Shown here: piece after piece, positions 1,015 to 12,987 of the stretch
How positions within the stretch are numbered: the first letter of the stretch is position 1
Layout of the letters: every line of letters begins with the position of its first letter
Virus genome (UHGV): UHGV-0056732
Source of the DNA: a virus
Reading direction: 5' to 3' (one strand)
Length of the DNA: 12,987 nt
The notes under the pieces: generated by a model
Databases searched by the model: none
Seen by the model: only the letters and a program-made list of their open reading frames with translations
What the model was told of the DNA's origin: nothing
Translations under genes and position numbers: made by a program

Positions 1015-1027
1015 ACAACCAGATGAG

Positions 1028-1046
1028 AAGTTACTTTGCATACCAT
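1028..1046 (+). promoter_or_regulatory. Candidate P1-type late promoter for the lydA-dar operon (9-bp inverted-repeat element plus TANNNT -10)
   Basis: AAGTTACTT (1028-1036) - TGCA - TACCAT (1041-1046); the same architecture and spacing recurs upstream of lyz (10269-10287). The late-promoter consensus is recalled only approximately. Confidence 0.4.
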
Positions 1047-1074
1047 TACCTCCTGACAACGTAGGAGGGAACTT

Positions 1075-1404
1075 GTGCTTGACACACAGGAATTAGCTCC
1101 AGTTGCTATTGCGCTCCTGCTTTCAGTAATTGGTGGGATAGGCACGTTCCTGATGGATGTCCGAGACGGTCGCCAGTCTGGCAATTTGTTGGGATTGGTT
1201 ACGGAGATCTTTGTTGCAGTGACAGCTGGCGCGGTGGCGTACCTATTGGGGCAACACGAGGGCTGGGAGTTATCAATTACGTACTTAATGGTAACGATAG
1301 CCAGCAATAACGGTCATGAGGTGATTTCAGGGATGAAACGAGTGAATATCGATAGCATTCTGAATGTTCTTACAAGTTTGGTGAAAAAGGGAGGCGGGAA
1401 ATGA
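1075..1404 (+). CDS. lydA: Holin (LydA-like), 109 aa
   Basis: GTG start at 1075 with strong SD AGGAGGG 5 nt upstream; small hydrophobic protein with TM segments (VAIALLLSVIGGIGTFL; IFVAVTAGAVAYLL); first gene of the operon next to cin as in P1; stop overlaps the next start (ATGA). Confidence 0.7.
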   Translation: MLDTQELAPVAIALLLSVIGGIGTFLMDVRDGRQSGNLLGLVTEIFVAVTAGAVAYLLGQHEGWELSITYLMVTIASNNGHEVISGMKRVNIDSILNVLTSLVKKGGGK

Positions 1405-1844
1405 TTGGCTGGGGGGTATGCGTTCTTGCGTTAGCCTTAGCCGATCGCTATTTGCTAAAACGCAAGGACATCACGCATTTAGAACTTGGTGATGTGGAAA
1501 TTAAACCGGGTTTCATCCGGGTGCCGTTCAAATACCGGTCTAAATTCCCGTTTTTGCGCGGCGCAACGGTCAGATATTGGATCCGCGATGTTCAGAAGCC
1601 AACGACAGTGATTGAAGGCGAACAACGTTGTCTGACGTCGGCTGAACAGGGCGAAAACAGTGAATGGTTGTACATACCCACTGAATATATGGGTAAAGGA
1701 GAACGGCTGTGGCATTTCAACGTCATGGTTACGCATGGCGACTCGTTCATTAACCCGTTGTATCGGATTTTCCCTGTTACTCAGCAAATCCGCAGAAGTT
1801 ACGTAATAAATCTCGCACAGGATGTGTCAGATGACGAAAAATAA
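1401..1844 (+). CDS. lydB: LydB-like holin antagonist (antiholin), 147 aa
   Basis: ATG at 1401 overlapping the lydA stop, SD GGGAGG upstream; hydrophobic N-terminus MIGWGVCVLALALA; position and size match P1 lydB as recalled. Confidence 0.65.
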   Translation: MIGWGVCVLALALADRYLLKRKDITHLELGDVEIKPGFIRVPFKYRSKFPFLRGATVRYWIRDVQKPTTVIEGEQRCLTSAEQGENSEWLYIPTEYMGKGERLWHFNVMVTHGDSFINPLYRIFPVTQQIRRSYVINLAQDVSDDEK

Positions 1845-2433
1845 GTATGCAACGGTCGATTTTGACCAGGTTAATGAAAAGGGGCTGAAATCCCTTATCG
1901 CGGCGATCAATAAAACCGGTGTTACGGTAATTGAGGTTGACTCCAGCAACCGCGCAACAACGAAAGATGGCGTTAAAGTTAAAACCGCAAAGCTGGTTCT
2001 TAACGACGGACAAATTCTTGCCATACAGGTAAACGATACTGGCGATATATCGTCTGTGAGGCTGAATGGAAAAGCTATTCCTAACGCTCAGTCTCCGGAT
2101 ATCAAGACGCTTGGTACCGTCATGGGGCAAGCGGCCCGCAAAAACTCCGCAAAATTCCAGAAATCACTGATCGCCAAAGCGAAACGTGTTGCCAATCCGG
2201 TAGACAAGAAACCGGCAGTAAAATCCAACTTTCAGCGCCTGCAAGAGGCAAAACAGCGGAATGCTCAGGTGGTTGCCGCTTATAAATCAGCGCAGAACTC
2301 GGTGTCTTTCAATCAACAGCAGATCACTGATTTGCGGGCGAAGCTGGATAAGGAGACAGGCCGACTCAATAACGAAAAGGCCCGAAATGGCGAACTCAAA
2401 CGCCGTCTTAAGCAACTGAAAGCAGGAAATTAA
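1822..2433 (+). CDS. hdf: Hdf-like protein (paralog of a DarA segment), 203 aa
   Basis: ATG at 1822 (alternative ATG at 1831); shares the KNSAKFQ block and a preceding L-DGQ-I-I region with the next gene; C-terminal coiled-coil-like stretch; stop TAA at 2431 just before the darA start. Confidence 0.6.
   Translation: MCQMTKNKYATVDFDQVNEKGLKSLIAAINKTGVTVIEVDSSNRATTKDGVKVKTAKLVLNDGQILAIQVNDTGDISSVRLNGKAIPNAQSPDIKTLGTVMGQAARKNSAKFQKSLIAKAKRVANPVDKKPAVKSNFQRLQEAKQRNAQVVAAYKSAQNSVSFNQQQITDLRAKLDKETGRLNNEKARNGELKRRLKQLKAGN
2140..2160 (+). repeat. 21-nt direct repeat copy 1 (within hdf), encoding KNSAKFQ
   Basis: AAAAACTCCGCAAAATTCCAG; 20 of 21 nt identical to 3038-3058 and codon-aligned in both genes. 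Confidence 0.6.
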
Positions 2434-2434
2434 C

Positions 2435-4321
2435 ATGGAACAGTTCAATATCAATAAAGGGGTGACGATCAAGCCTGGGCTTGACGTGCTTCCCCCGCCA
2501 GTGACTGATGATGAATATCGCGCATTAATGGCCGGTGAGGACCGCTATCTGATGACGGAATCCAACACCCTGGAGGAAATCGAGGCTACGTTCTTCTATG
2601 ACACGCCGATCCACTGGTGTGCTACGGATTTACTGGAGGCGATTAGTTCTACTCGTTTGCAGCTACACCGGACCATGCAGGCATTTGTCCGGGCATTGAA
2701 CCAGAAGCTGAATGGTACCGGAATCTCTGCGGGGAGTGATAAAACGGGGGATGTGGCCCAGAACGGTGCACGCGCGATCGGCGGGGCTGAAATTGGCCGG
2801 GCACGTAACGTTAACGGGCTGCCGGTCCTGCCAGCCATTATTCCGCTCAGTGATGGTCAGACTATCAGCATTCTGTTTCATAGCCCGACAGCGGAAAACC
2901 GGATCACCAATAGCGATACGCTGATTGCTTTCCAGTTCTTACTGAATAAAAAAGACGTTACTCATACCGTTGCTCCGATGAGTGGACGTGATATGACGCT
3001 GGCGCAGGTCACCATGAAACTTGCCAACCTTGCAGAGAAAAACTCGGCAAAATTCCAGCGTGCGCAGAAGAAGAAAAAAGCCCTGGTTGATGAAATAACC
3101 CAACTACAGGCTGACAGTGACCAGAAAGAGGATGCCATGAGCGACCTCGCGGATCAGGTGGCAGCGGTAGAAGGGCAGAAGGTAGATCTGGAGCAGAAAA
3201 TTAACGCTGTTGCATCGGAAGCGGATTCTCTTTATGAAGAGAATGAGCGTTTGCAGACGGAGATTGATCAGCTCAATCGAACTGGTGGGCGCGAAACCAT
3301 TGCTCCTGCGGGGATGACTGGTGGACACTCTCGCGCGATGACGGATCGCCTTGCAAGTATCAAAAATCGTATGCATATGAACGGGGAAGTGACGCTCAGT
3401 AATGGTGCATCAATGAAGCAATTCATTGAGGACGGTGAAGGGTATATCCAGTTAACCGATTCGGATGGCAGCGTGTACATGATCAAGGCTAAATCCATAC
3501 AGGGTGTGGACATGGCAGATGCGATCGGCAAGCTGTTTAAAGCCTATAAAGCGGGTAATGTATCGGAATACCTGGTCCAACCAGAAGAACATAAACCGGA
3601 AAACGTCGAACCTGAACCAGAAGTCTCTGTAGGTGCATATCGATATGCCCTGCAAATGCGTCCGGCGGCCCCTGGCGCAATACCTGAAGGTAACAAAGCA
3701 ATTCTGCTGCGCCCTGATGAAGGTGACCCGTATTATGAATATGCACGCTACGGCATTGCTACTTACGATACCCCGCTTTCTGATCAGCAAATGAGTGAGT
3801 ACGACCTGAAGTTATTGCCTCGCGAGGATTCTTTCGACTTCCTGGCGAAGACACTTACTAATGGTCCGTTTGGCAAATATGCACAAAAAGCTCTGGAGCT
3901 GGCCACCAGCTCACCAGACGAGTTCCGCGTAATGCTGAAAACTCAGTTTCAAAAAACTTTCCCCAATATTGCGTTTCCGGGGGGCGCTGGCACCGAGAAA
4001 ATGGTGCAGAGCATGATCAATGCATTGCAGGCCGAAGTCGGTGAGATTACTCAGCCAGAACCGGCCCCGGCACAGCCTGATGAAACGGTTAGCGAAGCAG
4101 ATGCAGAGGCTAATAAAGCCATTGAATATCTCAATAACGTGATGGATATGCAAAGCACTGACATGGCGGAGATCCGTAACGCCCGGGGCAATGTCCGGGA
4201 AGCGATTGCAGCCCTTCAGGCTGCCGGACGTTTTGAGGAAAACGAAGAGCTGGTTAACGGCGCAGCTCGCCACCTGGCTGATCTGCTGGTAGCAATCCAG
4301 AAAGCGGGGGTAGCGGCATGA
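2435..4321 (+). CDS. darA: DarA-like virion-packaged anti-restriction / head protein, 628 aa
   Basis: ATG at 2435; size and operon position match P1 darA as recalled; central coiled-coil (about residues 200-285); shares a motif with hdf; stop overlaps the ddrA start (ATGA at 4318-4321). Confidence 0.7.
   Translation: MEQFNINKGVTIKPGLDVLPPPVTDDEYRALMAGEDRYLMTESNTLEEIEATFFYDTPIHWCATDLLEAISSTRLQLHRTMQAFVRALNQKLNGTGISAGSDKTGDVAQNGARAIGGAEIGRARNVNGLPVLPAIIPLSDGQTISILFHSPTAENRITNSDTLIAFQFLLNKKDVTHTVAPMSGRDMTLAQVTMKLANLAEKNSAKFQRAQKKKKALVDEITQLQADSDQKEDAMSDLADQVAAVEGQKVDLEQKINAVASEADSLYEENERLQTEIDQLNRTGGRETIAPAGMTGGHSRAMTDRLASIKNRMHMNGEVTLSNGASMKQFIEDGEGYIQLTDSDGSVYMIKAKSIQGVDMADAIGKLFKAYKAGNVSEYLVQPEEHKPENVEPEPEVSVGAYRYALQMRPAAPGAIPEGNKAILLRPDEGDPYYEYARYGIATYDTPLSDQQMSEYDLKLLPREDSFDFLAKTLTNGPFGKYAQKALELATSSPDEFRVMLKTQFQKTFPNIAFPGGAGTEKMVQSMINALQAEVGEITQPEPAPAQPDETVSEADAEANKAIEYLNNVMDMQSTDMAEIRNARGNVREAIAALQAAGRFEENEELVNGAARHLADLLVAIQKAGVAA
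3038..3058 (+). repeat. 21-nt direct repeat copy 2 (within darA), encoding KNSAKFQ
   Basis: AAAAACTCGGCAAAATTCCAG; single mismatch relative to 2140-2160. Confidence 0.6.
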
Positions 4322-4683
4322 CACTATCAGCTATTGAGTTAATGGATCTCAGCGATAAGTTGGATGCTCTGATGTCCAAAGCGGCTACCGCGAGTGGTAT
4401 GGAGTTGCTGGATATCAGCGATGAAATTGACCAGATCATGCAACAGATGGGGTACGGCGCGTCTGGCGGCGGTAGTGGCGAGGAGAAACAACCTTCGGAA
4501 CATGATGGTGTGCCAAAACTGGTTGCTGATTTCCTGGCTGATAAATTCGTCGATCAGAGCACAGATGCATTTATCGGTACCTTGCAGGACTTGAGTCAAT
4601 ATGTTGGCACATACATCGACCTGGACCAGGTTAAACAGCACACGGCGGCATGGATAGCCGCCAACATTAAAGAGGCAGCATAA
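4318..4683 (+). CDS. ddrA: DdrA-like small acidic protein, 121 aa
   Basis: ATG at 4318 translationally coupled to darA; strongly acidic composition (many D/E, no Arg); Gly/Ser-rich linker (GASGGGSGEE). Confidence 0.6.
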   Translation: MTLSAIELMDLSDKLDALMSKAATASGMELLDISDEIDQIMQQMGYGASGGGSGEEKQPSEHDGVPKLVADFLADKFVDQSTDAFIGTLQDLSQYVGTYIDLDQVKQHTAAWIAANIKEAA

Positions 4684-4695
4684 GGCGTAACAGGG

Positions 4696-7683
4696 ATGAG
4701 CTTAAGCGATCAGGTGGTAATGGCCACCAGCATAGAAACGCTGATCGAGCTGCTAAAGAACCTGCCCGATTATGGGCGGGTTTCGTATGTGGTGACAGCG
4801 AAGGGAGACGAGGTAAAAACAGCGTTTGATATCGTCGATGCCTCAGCTCTTTTGGTATCCAATACTCTGGATGGGAAAATTAATCCAGACTATCCCCAGG
4901 AACTTCAGCCGCGCGACCGGACCCGCGCATCCAGCCTTCTTCAGGTCAACCAGATATCCAAGGATTTGCGTCCTGCCCAGCTTACCGATTCCGGTTTATC
5001 CAGCCATGGCGCGCCAATAATTGGTGAGGACAATGCCGTTGAGTCAGGTAATGGGCGGACCATGGGGATCATTAAAGCCTATCAGGACGGTAATGCGGAT
5101 CGGTATCGGGAGTACCTGATTGAACATGCGACCGAATTCGGCATACGGCCTGAAAAGGTTGAATCAATGACGGCTCCGGTACTGGTGCGCCGCCGGTTAA
5201 CGACGGTTGACCGTGTTCAGTTTGCCAAGGACTCAAATATTTCTGATCTCCAGGAAATGGCAGCCAGTGAAAAGGCTTTTGTTGATGCCGACAGCATAAC
5301 ACCGGCGATGATGGCGCTTTTTAACCCGTCAGAAAGCGGAGATCTGCTTAGCCGCAGTAATGACGCGTTTATTCGCGGATTTATGACGCAAGTTGGTGCC
5401 ACACAGGCGGCTGGCCTTGTAACTGAAGATGGGCGACCAACACGGCAACTTGTTGACCGTATACAAAACGCGATCTTTGCCAAGGCATATAAGGATGCGC
5501 GCCTGGTAAGGATGGTTGCAGAAGAACCTGATCCGGATATGCGTAATGTTCTGACGGCGCTTAATGCGGCAGCCAATGATTTTGTCCAGATGCAGGCTTT
5601 ATCAGGAGAAGCGCACAAGCAGGCTGTGACAACTATTGTTGATGGCATTGAGACAGCGGATAGCCTCGATAAAAAGGCGCTGGCGGCATTGAAAGATGCG
5701 GTAGACCTGGTAAGGCAATCGAAGGAGTCAGGCCAGCATATTACCGATGTTATTGCTCAGGGGGATATGTTCAGCGAAACGGCCCCGGAAGTGAAAGCAC
5801 TCGCGTTGTTCATCGTCGCGAATAACCGTAGCGCGAAGCGTATGGCCACCGCCTTTAAGTTGATGGCTCAACGTATCAATGATGAGTTACAGCACCAGGG
5901 CCAGGCGCTGGGGGATATGTTTGGCGGCGGCGATGTGTCGTTACAGGATATCCTTCGCCAGGTGTCTCAGGAACTGGAAAACGAAGGCATGCAAGGGATA
6001 TCCGGCGGTCTTTTCGAGTCCGTTTCCGGCGGTAGTTACAACGGTGTTGCTCCGTATACCAGTTTGCTATTACATCGGGCATCCGGCATCAAAGACATTA
6101 TTCATCTGATCAGGCTGCTTTCCCGCACAGATCCCCAGGATGAACAGCTTGTACAAGTGCTTGCGCATTTTGTTCGAATGCCTGTTGCCGACGTGAAAAA
6201 ATGGTGCCGATTATTCGGTATCAGCAATTCGTTACTTCGCGGCTTGTTAAATCACGCATCCTCCCTTGGGCGCGATGGCTTTGACGAGATAGCGCAGGCG
6301 ATAAAAAACGGAGATATGCCACCAGCTATTGACTGGTTTTCCATTCGCCCAACCAGGGTGAAAGCATTCCTTAGCGCGGCGCATTCGGCATCACCATTGG
6401 CAGAAATGGTTCAGAGGTTATCGCTCATATTCACAGACCATACCGCGTTGGGTGATCTGACTCTGGACGAGATGAAGGAAGCCTCCATTCAGTGGGCCGA
6501 TCAACAAAATGAGGTTAACTCAGACTTCTTGCCAGCATTCAGGAAGGCCGTTAGTAAAGCGGATGATGCCCGTGGAATTCTGAAGGCATTTAAGGCATTG
6601 CAAAGTCGTGTTAATAAACATGTCGGTGATATCGATGGGGTAACGGCGGAAGGCAGGGATATCCTCAAAGAGCACGGCATAACGCCAGAGTTTATTGATG
6701 AGATCAGGACGGATATGCAGCGTGAGGTCGTATCGTCCCTGCAAATCGTAGCCAGAGCGTTGGCGGATGCTAATCCGAAGAGTGCGGCCATTGTTAACCG
6801 GGTTATTGGTGATATTGAAGCATCGGAGGGCATGGGGGCGCTGAAACTCTTCCTTTCGCGAGCGTTTAATCCTAACGGCAATATTCTCCCTGGCATTATT
6901 GGTGAGGCTAAAAAGTATGTCAGTGAAGAAGAACTTGAGCAGCTTGACCAACTACTTAAGCGATTCTCATATAACCCGCAGACACGCTGGCAAATGAATC
7001 AGCGAAGTATGGGTTCGGTCCACGAGAAAGTGTTATCTGCCATGAACAGTGCGATCGCAAACTCATCCGTATCTGAAGAAAAAGCTCTTGAGTGGGCCGA
7101 CTCTTTTATCACAGAAGAAGTGGAAGAAGCCCGCGCTGGACAGAATGGTGGGATAGACCTGCGCAAGGAACTTGCTGATATTTATCGCCTGACCGGCGGG
7201 AAAATATCGACCTTATCAAAGGTAGTTCACCACCAGGGAAGGGCATATGCAAATCTAAATGGTGTTGTTGCTGTCAATTTGAACGATAAAAATGCAAGTG
7301 CACTGTGGCACGAGCTGGGTCATCATCTTGAGTACAGTAACCCTGGTTTGTTAGAGAAAGCCCGGTCATTCCTGAAGGCCAATGTTGAAGGGGATAAGCC
7401 ATCATTCGTCAATATCGGTGGGCGTGGCAAGCCTGAATGGTGCTTCAGATCTCGATTGAGTAATATTTATATGGCGAAGGTATACCCGCCAGCCTCAGTA
7501 AGTAATTCCGGGAAAATTCGGCAGAAATCACCGACTATTTCCAAAACGTCAGCAACGGAAGTATTCTCTATGGCTCTTCAGTTGTATCATGACAAAGAGG
7601 CCGCTGCCGCATCACTGATGAATGGTGACGGATTGCTGGAACTGTTATTAGGTGTGGCAAAGGAGCTAAATAATGCAGATTAA
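4696..7683 (+). CDS. ddrB: DdrB-like large protein, 995 aa, with an N-terminal ParB/Srx-like motif region and a C-terminal HExxH zinc-metallopeptidase-like motif
   Basis: ATG at 4696; residues about 60-130 carry a ParB-N-like pattern (NPDYPQELQPRDR ... APIIGEDNAVESGNGRTMGI); residues 872-876 are HELGH (nt 7309-7323) followed by H877 and E887; size matches the roughly 108-kDa P1 DdrB as recalled. Confidence 0.65.
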   Translation: MSLSDQVVMATSIETLIELLKNLPDYGRVSYVVTAKGDEVKTAFDIVDASALLVSNTLDGKINPDYPQELQPRDRTRASSLLQVNQISKDLRPAQLTDSGLSSHGAPIIGEDNAVESGNGRTMGIIKAYQDGNADRYREYLIEHATEFGIRPEKVESMTAPVLVRRRLTTVDRVQFAKDSNISDLQEMAASEKAFVDADSITPAMMALFNPSESGDLLSRSNDAFIRGFMTQVGATQAAGLVTEDGRPTRQLVDRIQNAIFAKAYKDARLVRMVAEEPDPDMRNVLTALNAAANDFVQMQALSGEAHKQAVTTIVDGIETADSLDKKALAALKDAVDLVRQSKESGQHITDVIAQGDMFSETAPEVKALALFIVANNRSAKRMATAFKLMAQRINDELQHQGQALGDMFGGGDVSLQDILRQVSQELENEGMQGISGGLFESVSGGSYNGVAPYTSLLLHRASGIKDIIHLIRLLSRTDPQDEQLVQVLAHFVRMPVADVKKWCRLFGISNSLLRGLLNHASSLGRDGFDEIAQAIKNGDMPPAIDWFSIRPTRVKAFLSAAHSASPLAEMVQRLSLIFTDHTALGDLTLDEMKEASIQWADQQNEVNSDFLPAFRKAVSKADDARGILKAFKALQSRVNKHVGDIDGVTAEGRDILKEHGITPEFIDEIRTDMQREVVSSLQIVARALADANPKSAAIVNRVIGDIEASEGMGALKLFLSRAFNPNGNILPGIIGEAKKYVSEEELEQLDQLLKRFSYNPQTRWQMNQRSMGSVHEKVLSAMNSAIANSSVSEEKALEWADSFITEEVEEARAGQNGGIDLRKELADIYRLTGGKISTLSKVVHHQGRAYANLNGVVAVNLNDKNASALWHELGHHLEYSNPGLLEKARSFLKANVEGDKPSFVNIGGRGKPEWCFRSRLSNIYMAKVYPPASVSNSGKIRQKSPTISKTSATEVFSMALQLYHDKEAAAASLMNGDGLLELLLGVAKELNNAD

Positions 7684-7993
7684 AATCGCAGCGCCATTAG
7701 GCGGAGATGCCATTATCGAATTTGATGATAATGAAGAAGTTTCCGGGCGTTTGAGCATTATCTCCGGTGACATTACCGAGGACATGATCGCTGAAGCCAT
7801 AGCTGGGGCAAATCCCAATAGCTATATGGGATTCGTTAACACCCTTGATGCTCCCGCAAGTGATGTTCTCCGAACGCTGCATCTTTACGCTGGCTGGTTT
7901 GTTGATTGGCCAGCAGTAGATGGTGGCGATGAGGATGATGATGACGATGAAGAGGTTTTTAGTGATGAAACAGTAAACCAACTCTTGTATTGA
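7673..7993 (+). CDS. Hypothetical highly acidic protein, 106 aa, translationally coupled to ddrB
   Basis: ATG at 7673 overlapping the ddrB 3' end by 11 nt, SD AAGGAG 7 nt upstream; poly-acidic C-terminus DGGDEDDDDDEEVFSDE; about 27 D/E versus 3-4 K/R. Confidence 0.6.
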   Translation: MQIKIAAPLGGDAIIEFDDNEEVSGRLSIISGDITEDMIAEAIAGANPNSYMGFVNTLDAPASDVLRTLHLYAGWFVDWPAVDGGDEDDDDDEEVFSDETVNQLLY

Positions 7994-8196: not shown

Positions 8197-8484
8197 TTAG
8201 TTTTGAGGCAATGCAACAAAAGTCAGCTCTTGATCTTTGATTAATGCTTTTGTTTGTTTGGATGTAATTCCCACTTTAGTTTTTACATCATTGTGGAGCT
8301 TCTTATACGCTTTTATTTCATCTGCTGTATATCGGAAGCCATTTGCACTGTTACTGGACAGTTGAAGTGCGATTACGTCATCACTGACACCCGCATCGCT
8401 TAGCTTAGCTATGCGGGTAATAGTGTGGCCTGCGCGAGTGTTTGGGGTGGATATTTTGTCTAAGAAATTGTTCAGTTTTTCCAT
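8197..8484 (-). CDS. Hypothetical small protein, 95 aa, possibly HTH DNA-binding, in an AT-rich island
   Basis: ATG at 8484 with SD AGAGG 9 nt upstream; segment HTITRIAKLSDAGVSDDVIALQL resembles a helix-turn-helix; visibly AT-rich flanks; own upstream region separated from the 263-aa gene by a terminator. Confidence 0.55.
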   Translation of the reverse strand: MEKLNNFLDKISTPNTRAGHTITRIAKLSDAGVSDDVIALQLSSNSANGFRYTADEIKAYKKLHNDVKTKVGITSKQTKALIKDQELTFVALPQN

Positions 8485-9716: not shown

Positions 9717-10205
9717 TCAAAACGGAATATCGTCGTCAAAGTCCATTGGAGGTTCGTTATTGGCGTTGCTCTGAGGTTTACCGCCACCGCTGTATTGCTG
9801 GTGGTTTTGAGGTTGGTTTGATTGCCCCCAGCCATTTGAGGACTGTGAATCGTCACGGCGAGCGCCGATCATTTGCATGGTGCCGCCCTGGCTGACGATA
9901 ATTTCCGTCGTGTAACGTTCTACACCGGCGTCATCTGTCCACTTACGGGTTTTAAGTTTCCCTTCGATGTAGACCTGAGAACCTTTTCGTAAATACTCAC
10001 TCGCAATTTCAGCAAGTTTTCCGAACAAAACGACTTTATGCCATTCTGTTTGCTCTTTCTGTTGGCCCGTTTGCTTGTCGCGCCATGATTCATTCGTTGC
10101 GATGCTGAGTCTTCCGACCGCGACGCCATTTGGTATATACCTGATCTCCGGGTCTTGCCCCAGGGTACCAATCAGGATGACTTTGTTTACACCGCGTTGT
10201 GCCAC
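9717..10205 (-). CDS. ssb: Single-stranded DNA-binding protein (SSB), about 162 aa
   Basis: Canonical SSB OB-fold sequence ([20 protein letters not shown] ... [37 protein letters not shown]), Gly/Gln-rich tail and C-terminal [11 protein letters not shown]. Start taken as GTG at 10205 (MAQRGVNKV) by alignment to E. coli SSB; the ORF-track start at 10226 is a TTG. Confidence 0.9.
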
Positions 10206-10224
10206 TTTTCTTACCCAATAAAAC

Positions 10225-10241
10225 AAATTAATTAGAGCAAT
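10225..10241 (-). promoter_or_regulatory. Near-consensus P1 C1-repressor operator in the ssb/lyz divergent control region
   Basis: Minus strand reads ATTGCTCTAATTAATTT, 16 of 17 matches to the recalled P1 C1 operator consensus ATTGCTCTAATAAATTT; lies 20-36 bp upstream of the ssb GTG start. Confidence 0.55.
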
Positions 10242-10268
10242 AATGTATATCTTTGAAACGTAGCTAAC

Positions 10269-10287
10269 AAGTGATTTGCATTATCCT
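10269..10287 (+). promoter_or_regulatory. Candidate P1-type late promoter for lyz
   Basis: AAGTGATTT (10269-10277) - GCAT - TATCCT (10282-10287); same architecture and spacing as the lydA-upstream element. Confidence 0.4.
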
Positions 10288-10374
10288 GTGCCTTCTAAAG
10301 GGATCGAGTCAGTCGGTATTGGCTGTGAATGGGTGTTTGTCCTGGAGCGTAAAAAATTCGCTTATGAGGTCTTT

Positions 10375-10932
10375 ATGAAGGGAAAAACAGCCGCAGGAGG
10401 CGGTGCAATTTGCGCTATCGCGGTGATGATTACCATCGTGATGGGTAATGGCAATGTGCGAACCAACCAGGCGGGGCTTGAGCTGATTGGTAACGCTGAA
10501 GGTTGCCGACGTGATCCATACATGTGCCCTGCGGGGGTATGGACTGACGGGATCGGTAATACACACGGGGTAACGCCGGGTGTGCGAAAAACCGACCAGC
10601 AAATCGCCGCTGATTGGGAAAAGAATATCCTGATCGCTGAACGCTGTATTAATCAGCACTTCCGGGGCAAAGACATGCCCGATAATGCCTTCAGTGCAAT
10701 GACAAGCGCGGCATTCAATATGGGATGCAATAGCTTACGGACCTACTACAGCAAAGCGCGAGGCATGCGAGTAGAAACGTCCATCCACAAGTGGGCGCAG
10801 AAAGGGGAATGGGTGAATATGTGTAACCATCTCCCTGATTTCGTGAACAGTAACGGCGTGCCCCTGCGAGGTTTAAAGATTCGCCGTGAAAAAGAACGCC
10901 AGCTTTGCCTGACGGGACTGGTCAATGAATAA
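10375..10932 (+). CDS. lyz: SAR endolysin (T4-type lysozyme with N-terminal signal-anchor-release domain), 185 aa
   Basis: ATG at 10375 with GAGG SD; N-terminus MKGKTAAGGGAICAIAVMITIVMGNG is a Gly/Ala-rich weakly hydrophobic SAR helix; Cys13, Cys44, Cys51 with Glu42 and Thr57 reproduce the disulfide-isomerisation arrangement described for P1 Lyz; lysozyme core (NAEGCRRDPYMCPAGVWTDGIGNTHGV). Confidence 0.9.
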   Translation: MKGKTAAGGGAICAIAVMITIVMGNGNVRTNQAGLELIGNAEGCRRDPYMCPAGVWTDGIGNTHGVTPGVRKTDQQIAADWEKNILIAERCINQHFRGKDMPDNAFSAMTSAAFNMGCNSLRTYYSKARGMRVETSIHKWAQKGEWVNMCNHLPDFVNSNGVPLRGLKIRREKERQLCLTGLVNE

Positions 10933-11179
10933 ACTCCGGCAGCTCCGCCGACTTTCGACAATGAAGTTATCGCTGGCGGCGATAGTTTTCGACTCGATTT
11001 TCATGGCGGTATATGTGCTCAATGAGACGTGGCCACTGGAACCGCTATTGTATGCCGGGCTTCGGCTGTGCCTGACATTTTTGAGCATGGCTGCAAGATT
11101 GATGCAGCAGAAAGAAACCGCTTCAGATTGTCCACGCCGCGCGGTGCGCAAATATATGGCACGCAGGCGAAGGCGATAA
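10925..11179 (+). CDS. Hypothetical small membrane protein, 84 aa, coupled to lyz; candidate lysis accessory (holin/antiholin-like)
   Basis: ATG at 10925 overlaps the lyz stop (ATGAATAA); two hydrophobic segments (LSLAAIVFDSIFMAVYVL; LLYAGLRLCLTFLSMAARL); Arg-rich C-terminus ARRRRR; followed by a terminator. Confidence 0.5.
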   Translation: MNKLRQLRRLSTMKLSLAAIVFDSIFMAVYVLNETWPLEPLLYAGLRLCLTFLSMAARLMQQKETASDCPRRAVRKYMARRRRR

Positions 11180-11192
11180 TAGTTAACGAGAA

Positions 11193-11218
11193 CCCCGGCA
11201 GCCGCCGGGGTTATTTTT
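11193..11218 (+). terminator. Rho-independent terminator ending the lyz transcription unit
   Basis: Stem CCCCGGC(11193-11199)/GCCGGGG(11204-11210), loop AGCC, then TTATTTTT (11211-11218); sits between convergent lyz-side genes and pro. Confidence 0.65.
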
Positions 11219-11223
11219 GGTGG

Positions 11224-12987
<1,764 letters not shown>

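Follow-up and report, generated by a model that had tools for sequence, protein, structure and literature searches.

What controls the lysis genes of a P1-like phage-plasmid when the holin and the endolysin are encoded in unlinked operons? The question is raised by two short sites in the UHGV virus genome UHGV-0056732, of which one stretch of 12,987 nucleotides (the window) was analyzed here. One site precedes the holin gene lydA and the other the endolysin gene lyz, and a first-pass annotation made from the letters alone had proposed that both are activator-dependent late promoters of the P1 type. We conclude, with a probability of roughly 95%, that the two sites are the late promoters LPdar and LPlyz of a P1/P7-like phage-plasmid. 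Both promoters have already been described and curated in P1 and P7, and the finding is correct but ordinary. The sites and their parts, all on the plus strand, are as follows.

1028-1046, plus strand: late promoter LPdar; full 19-mer AAGTTACTTTGCATACCAT, 19/19 identical to the P1 annotation
1028-1036, plus strand: LPdar -22 box, AAGTTACTT, a perfect AAGT/ACTT inverted repeat
1037-1040, plus strand: LPdar spacer, TGCA
1041-1046, plus strand: LPdar -10 hexamer, TACCAT
1054, plus strand: probable LPdar transcription start (box centre 1032 plus 22), 8 nt past the -10 hexamer
10269-10287, plus strand: late promoter LPlyz; full 19-mer AAGTGATTTGCATTATCCT, 19/19 identical to the P1 annotation
10269-10277, plus strand: LPlyz -22 box, AAGTGATTT
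10278-10281, plus strand: LPlyz spacer, GCAT
10282-10287, plus strand: LPlyz -10 hexamer, TATCCT
~10295, plus strand: probable LPlyz transcription start, from the same box-centre convention

The shared 9-mer, the 4-bp spacer and the TANNNT hexamer are present at identical spacing at both places, as the first-pass annotation had described, and the 4-bp distance between box and hexamer is also that of 10 of the 11 annotated P1 late promoters. The LPdar box matches all eight specified positions of AAGTNACTT, the box common to the P1 class, while the LPlyz box matches seven of the eight and is an imperfect palindrome (AAGT/ATTT) owing to a C to T change at position 7 relative to the class. Each -10 hexamer agrees with TATAAT at only four of six positions. 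The hexamer ends 28 nt before the GTG start codon of lydA (1075) and 87 nt before the ATG of lyz (10375), distances that fit the proposed placement 30-90 bp upstream of a lysis gene. The claimed lack of a -35 element was likewise borne out: a sigma-70 scan of positions 600-1200 and 10100-10450 found no -35/-10 pair at either site. By eye, no hexamer 16-18 bp upstream of either -10 has more than two of six matches to TTGACA, and no extended -10 TG is visible at either site. The two start positions, ~1054 and ~10295, follow from the published "-22" convention (PMC3152322).

The setting of the two sites was established by megablast of the whole window against phage genomes, which identified it as a P1/P7-like phage-plasmid segment (genus Punavirus). 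The window is ~98% identical to positions 18270-32267 of the P1 record, reverse strand, and 98.5% identical to P7. The correspondence with P1 is divided as follows.

1-661: match to P1 at 94% identity
662-1017: no P1 match; stretch of the P7-type lydC gene
1018-7948: match to P1 at 97.8% identity
7949-8730: no P1 match; replaces the end of hxr, isaB and IS1 of P1
8731-12987: match to P1 at 97.9% identity

The window thus differs from P1 in carrying a P7-type lydC module upstream of position 1018 instead of the P1 one, and in the replacement of the IS1/isaB region, where the new stretch holds a 95-aa ORF (8197-8484, minus strand) without a Pfam match. A T to C substitution relative to P1 lies at 10292, 5 nt past the LPlyz -10 hexamer. 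The darA product has 628 aa in the window and 639 aa in P1; the single gap in the P1 alignment of 1018-7948 is 33 bases, a size that fits this 11-codon difference. At least 80% of the window is carried by 375 plasmids in the collection, none of which matches it exactly, the best matches covering 97% of the window at 98.6% identity.

The two sites coincide with curated promoters. Both 19-mers are base for base the features "late promoter LPdar" and "late promoter LPlyz" of P1 (AF234172), where each is laid out as a 9-bp "-22 region", 4 bp and a "-10 signal", the same arrangement that the first-pass annotation had recognized as a P1-type late promoter. LPdar is also annotated in the P7 record (AF503408). 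Among older P1 entries, the darA-operon record AJ000741 places a "-22 signal" plus a -10 at LPdar, and AF125376 labels the LPlyz 19-mer "late promoter sequence of lysA". The P1/P7 promoters occupy the equivalent places before lydA and lyz and, at LPlyz, have the same neighbors, the C1 operator Ossb and the early promoter P2ssb.

Comparison with the P1 late-promoter consensus had been suggested as a check. The consensus was rebuilt from the GenBank annotation of AF234172, in which all 11 annotated late promoters align to a common box-N4-hexamer arrangement and yield ACAAGTGACTT-N4-TAnAAT. The other members of the class (Ps/LPs, LPsit, LP23, LP26, LPpmgL, LPmat, LPpro, LPpac, and LPhot) share the box at -22, the 4-bp spacer and the -10, and have no -35. 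LPdar and LPlyz differ from most of them in -10 hexamers (TACCAT, TATCCT) that lie further from TATAAT, and they stand near the low end of the class at 21.9 and 22.5 bits, compared with 24-27 bits for six of the seven other annotated P1 promoters that have the standard 4-bp spacing and one strand-specific box. Two unannotated positions in AF234172 score like the weaker annotated late promoters: 76798-76780 on the minus strand (19.0 bits), in the gene 7/25 region, and 50744-50726 on the minus strand (17.3 bits), antisense at the start of repL. Ps and Pdar are said, going by the title of work by Guidolin et al. in 1989 that PMC9025707 cites, to have been defined experimentally.

The resemblance of the two sites to each other could in principle have arisen by chance, and the 9-mer by itself is not rare, with 3 matches in the window against 0.92 expected. 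What is specific is the combination of a box, a spacer of fixed length and a -10 hexamer. The pattern AAGTNAYTT-N4-TANNNT occurs twice in the window, both strands considered, and at these sites only, against 0.01 occurrences expected from 200 dinucleotide-preserving shuffles, a count that is circular in that the pattern was derived from the same two sites. An independent test left LPdar and LPlyz out and derived a weight matrix from the remaining nine late promoters annotated in P1. Among ~26,000 positions on both strands, this matrix ranks 10269-10287 first (19.1 bits) and 1028-1046 second (17.3 bits), although some P1 late-promoter annotations were themselves made by motif search and the ranking partly measures the consistency of the annotators. 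The best score in each of 500 random windows averaged 11.4 bits (sd 2.3); a best score of 19.1 bits was attained in 0.2% of these windows, and in none did the runner-up come up to 17.3 bits. The observation is real and highly non-random.

A third site, at 1340-1358 on the plus strand (GAGTGAATA-tcga-TAGCAT), was considered as a promoter and was not counted, its 13.8 bits being within about 1 sd of the random maximum. It lies inside the 3′ end of lydA, 42 bp before the start of lydB, and is identical in P1 (record 30918-30900), where it carries no annotation.

Both promoters stand upstream of a late-type operon on the same strand. The downstream genes were identified from ORFs and Pfam matches, the dar operon being collinear with the P1 annotation at 97.8% identity and the lyz operon matching that annotation.

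1075-7683, plus strand: dar operon, served by LPdar
1075-1404, plus strand: lydA, holin; GTG start; Pfam Phage_holin_3_3
1401-1844, plus strand: lydB, antiholin; Pfam LydB
1822-2433, plus strand: hdf; Pfam DarA_N
2435-4321, plus strand: darA; Pfam DarA_N plus DarA_C
4318-4683, plus strand: ddrA
4696-7683, plus strand: ddrB
10375-11244, plus strand: lyz operon, served by LPlyz
10375-10932, plus strand: lyz, SAR-endolysin (lysozyme); ATG start; Pfam Phage_lysozyme, E = 2e-22
10925-11179, plus strand: lydD
11029-11244, plus strand: lydE

The Pfam assignments agree with the holin and anti-restriction operon and the endolysin that had been claimed: the holin LydA, LydB, Hdf, and DarA come after LPdar, and the lysozyme Lyz after LPlyz. 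A lyz-lydD-lydE operon has been described in P1, and the same work ascribes late-promoter expression to lyz/lydD and lydA/lydB and a predicted early promoter to lydC (PMC9025707).

Late transcription in P1 requires the phage protein Lpa and the host co-activator SspA, with Lpa binding a conserved sequence centered at -22 (PMC3152322). Lpa is thought to work through contact with SspA bound to RNA polymerase (PMC1891329), and P1 has 11 late promoters whose common 9-bp inverted repeat is the Lpa site (PMC10695390). By extension, Lpa (gp10) would bind the box at each of the two sites and, together with SspA, let sigma-70 RNA polymerase initiate from a promoter with a moderate -10 hexamer (TANNNT), no -35 element and a box centre ~22 bp upstream of the start. 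Lpa would be produced only once C1 repression has ended. LPdar would then switch on lydA, lydB, and hdf-darA-ddrA-ddrB (antirestriction and head genes), and LPlyz would switch on lyz, lydD, and lydE, in both cases late in the lytic cycle. Lpa binding, SspA co-activation, the start sites, and late timing would apply here by virtue of the identity with P1, through which they are carried over or extrapolated from the literature. The activator gene lpa lies ~35-59 kb from these sites in P1, beyond the 13-kb window. Lpa of at least 95% identity is encoded in 614 plasmids of the collection, some of which have this lydA region (e.g., NZ_CP026475.1 and NZ_CP139854.1), and these relatives suggest that the element containing the window probably carries lpa as well.

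A further line of evidence comes from Cronobacter phage JK004 (MZ188976), a divergent P1-like phage whose Lpa, LydA, and Lyz are 67%, 72%, and 83% identical, respectively. Between genes it can no longer be aligned with the window, BLAST matches beginning at or next to the start codons of lydA and lyz. A box-N4-hexamer site is nevertheless found 12-94 bp upstream in nine of the ten JK004 orthologues of the first genes of P1 late operons; only 13 of 187,608 JK004 positions score at least 10.67 bits, the value of the weakest of the nine. No such site occurs upstream of the early gene lpa in JK004. The lyz site (aac AAGCGATTT ggga TACGAT) lies 94 bp upstream of its gene and the lydA site (AAAGCACTT tcac TAACAT) 29 bp upstream, the latter scoring only 10.7 bits; both lysis-operon boxes have drifted to AAGC instead of AAGT. 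JK004 and related Salmonella plasmids keep the layout and distance at orthologous late operons, although the sites are unannotated in those records. Absence of the motif from other late promoters had been named as an observation that would count against the late-promoter interpretation; the motif is present in the late promoters of both P1 and JK004. Another late-promoter-like site in JK004, AAGTGATCT-gctt-TACGAT (12.9 bits), faces ssb and stands back to back with the lyz late promoter (record 83285-83303, plus strand, and 83384-83366, minus strand).

Divergent relatives were few: a LydB scan of genome contigs gave two loci, and a scan with the LydA of JK004 added one lineage. This third lineage, made up of two IMG/VR contigs (L096 and L097) and a Salmonella Newport plasmid, has the same lydA box and -10 hexamer. 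Upstream of more distant LydA homologues (41-46% identical) in D6-like and Citrobacter plasmids, no P1-type motif was found, the best score being at most 1.1 bits. The motif may be limited to the closer P1/JK004 clade, or it may have diverged beyond what this matrix recognizes. The D6-like plasmids L099 and L100 have a block, GGAAATAACAAACTGRNTAAGTT, ~55 bp upstream of the lydA homologue at the point where unrelated upstream sequences converge, which may represent a different late-promoter signature; L099 also has a terminator-like hairpin upstream of its lydA homologue.

A similar convergence is seen at LPdar itself. P1 homology breaks at window 1017-1018, ~11 bp upstream of the -22 box, where the P7-type lydC (730-1014) is found instead. 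In a scan of viral contigs, 80 P1-like IMG/VR loci were recovered, all 99-100% identical and useful for mapping this junction rather than for judging constraint; the LPdar 19-mer is invariant in all 80, and ~11 bp ahead of the box the shared sequence gives way to at least six unrelated ones. Of 479 plasmids with a lydA-region match, 476 show query coverage of 80% or more, and among the matches listed with such coverage the start is at window 1000, 1017, 1018, or 1024. Position 1017-1018 therefore has the look of a place, immediately before the late promoter, where mosaic exchange has recurred. Because varied upstream modules join just 5′ of the box, it is as part of the lydA module that the promoter moves in mosaic recombination, and nothing fixed from farther upstream moves along. 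Such interchangeable upstream sequence is in line with the absence of a recognizable -35 hexamer.

The surroundings of LPlyz are of a different kind, the ssb-lyz intergenic region being a divergent early/late control region. The following elements were located there, the two P2ssb elements being transferred from the P1 annotation, to which the sequence is identical.

10225-10241, minus strand: C1 operator Ossb/Op21, C1 consensus with 1 mismatch
10242-10247, minus strand: P2ssb -10
10265-10270, minus strand: P2ssb -35

The P2ssb -35 and the LPlyz -22 box have 2 nt in common, the first two of the box, and one may speculate that bound Lpa interferes with the early ssb promoter. The possibility that the boxes themselves are C1 operators was rejected, the sole C1-operator-like match in the window being the known Ossb.

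Two other accounts of the sites deserve to be weighed against the late-promoter assignment. The 9-mer at 10269-10277 might be kept mainly for the early, C1-controlled ssb promoter, through its P2ssb -35, and the box at 1028 for some other DNA-binding protein. The overlap with the -35 and a C1 operator only 28 bp away lend this some appeal, but the overlap involves just two of nine bases and the only C1-operator-like site in the window is the one already assigned to ssb. Moreover, the same box and spacing occur in nine further late operons of P1, none with an ssb-type promoter, and in JK004 the lyz box retains eight of nine bases although the rest of the intergenic region is unalignable. We regard this account as very improbable.

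The same holds for the proposal that the resemblance is fortuitous, or that these are weak sigma-70 promoters of the ordinary kind that need no phage activator. The unremarkable frequency of the isolated 9-mer is compatible with such a proposal, as are -10 hexamers that each match TATAAT at four of six positions. It fares badly, however, against a composite pattern found twice where 0.01 was expected, and against an independently built matrix that gives the two sites its top two scores, values that hardly any random window attains. Neither a -35 hexamer nor an extended -10 TG is present at either site. Together with the identity to annotated late promoters and the layout kept in JK004, these results leave chance or weak sigma-70 activity with hardly any probability. 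The late-promoter assignment is supported, and the first-pass interpretation was correct in every point that could be checked.

A separate matter, which would add to the late-promoter assignment rather than replace it, is whether lydA is additionally gated at the level of translation. The leader of lydA contains a predicted hairpin.

1049-1068, plus strand: predicted lydA leader hairpin, CCUCCUG (1049-1055) pairing with UAGGAGG (1062-1068)

This 7-bp hairpin (-10.7 kcal/mol, z = -2.5, a modest value) covers the Shine-Dalgarno sequence of lydA, and the expected late start at ~1054 falls within its 5′ arm. Read-through RNA from the early gene lydC would carry the 5′ arm and hide the lydA ribosome-binding site, while RNA started at ~1054 would lack that arm and be translatable. 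In line with this scheme, AGGAGG is computed to be free of pairing with a probability of 0.33 in RNA that begins at 1052-1055, compared with 0.00 in read-through RNA. No such accessibility difference between read-through and late RNA is predicted for the lyz leader. No terminator-like site was found between lydC and lydA, and the two genes differ in their reported timing, lydC being early and lydA late (PMC9025707). In the L096/L098 lineage, the predicted openness of the Shine-Dalgarno sequence likewise rises, from 0.14-0.31 in read-through RNA to 0.56 in late RNA; its pairing partner in the L096 lineage is a tract of pyrimidines upstream of the box.

Gene e (lysozyme) of phage T4 is documented to follow this design: in its longer early transcripts the ribosome-binding site is sequestered by a hairpin, and late RNA is made without the 5′ strand of that hairpin (PMC3014915). 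The likeness lies in a late promoter placed such that late transcripts omit the inhibitory 5′ strand. In T4, however, the late promoters are gp55-dependent and the effect was shown by experiment, whereas the lydA structure is predicted and the gene encodes a holin, not an endolysin. A recent P1 lysis paper does not mention a hairpin or stem-loop (PMC9025707). Several observations speak against a gate at lydA: the LPdar start is itself extrapolated, JK004 gives no consistent difference in accessibility between late and read-through RNA, the fold z-scores are modest, and three lineages are too few for covariation. In a control covering all 11 P1 late promoters, accessibility gains at LPsit and LP23 were similar to or above that at lydA; the measure is not holin-specific, and because the gain is not unique to lydA the hairpin idea was downgraded. 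We consider it rather unlikely that lydA is gated at translation in this way, and equally doubtful that the LPdar start is placed so that only late-promoter transcripts would yield the LydA holin.

If the lydA leader did act as a gate, it would protect P1 from lysing too early in the way that the gene e safeguard does for T4, and a translational safeguard on the holin, once confirmed, would add a small new point about the timing of P1 lysis. The assignment of the two sites to LPdar and LPlyz mostly confirms textbook P1 biology, in which one class of activator-dependent promoters co-ordinates the unlinked holin and endolysin operons. Its value lies in annotation: the 19-bp pattern AAGTNAYTT-N4-TANNNT marks late operons in hundreds of P1-like phage-plasmids of Enterobacteriaceae, many of which carry resistance genes.
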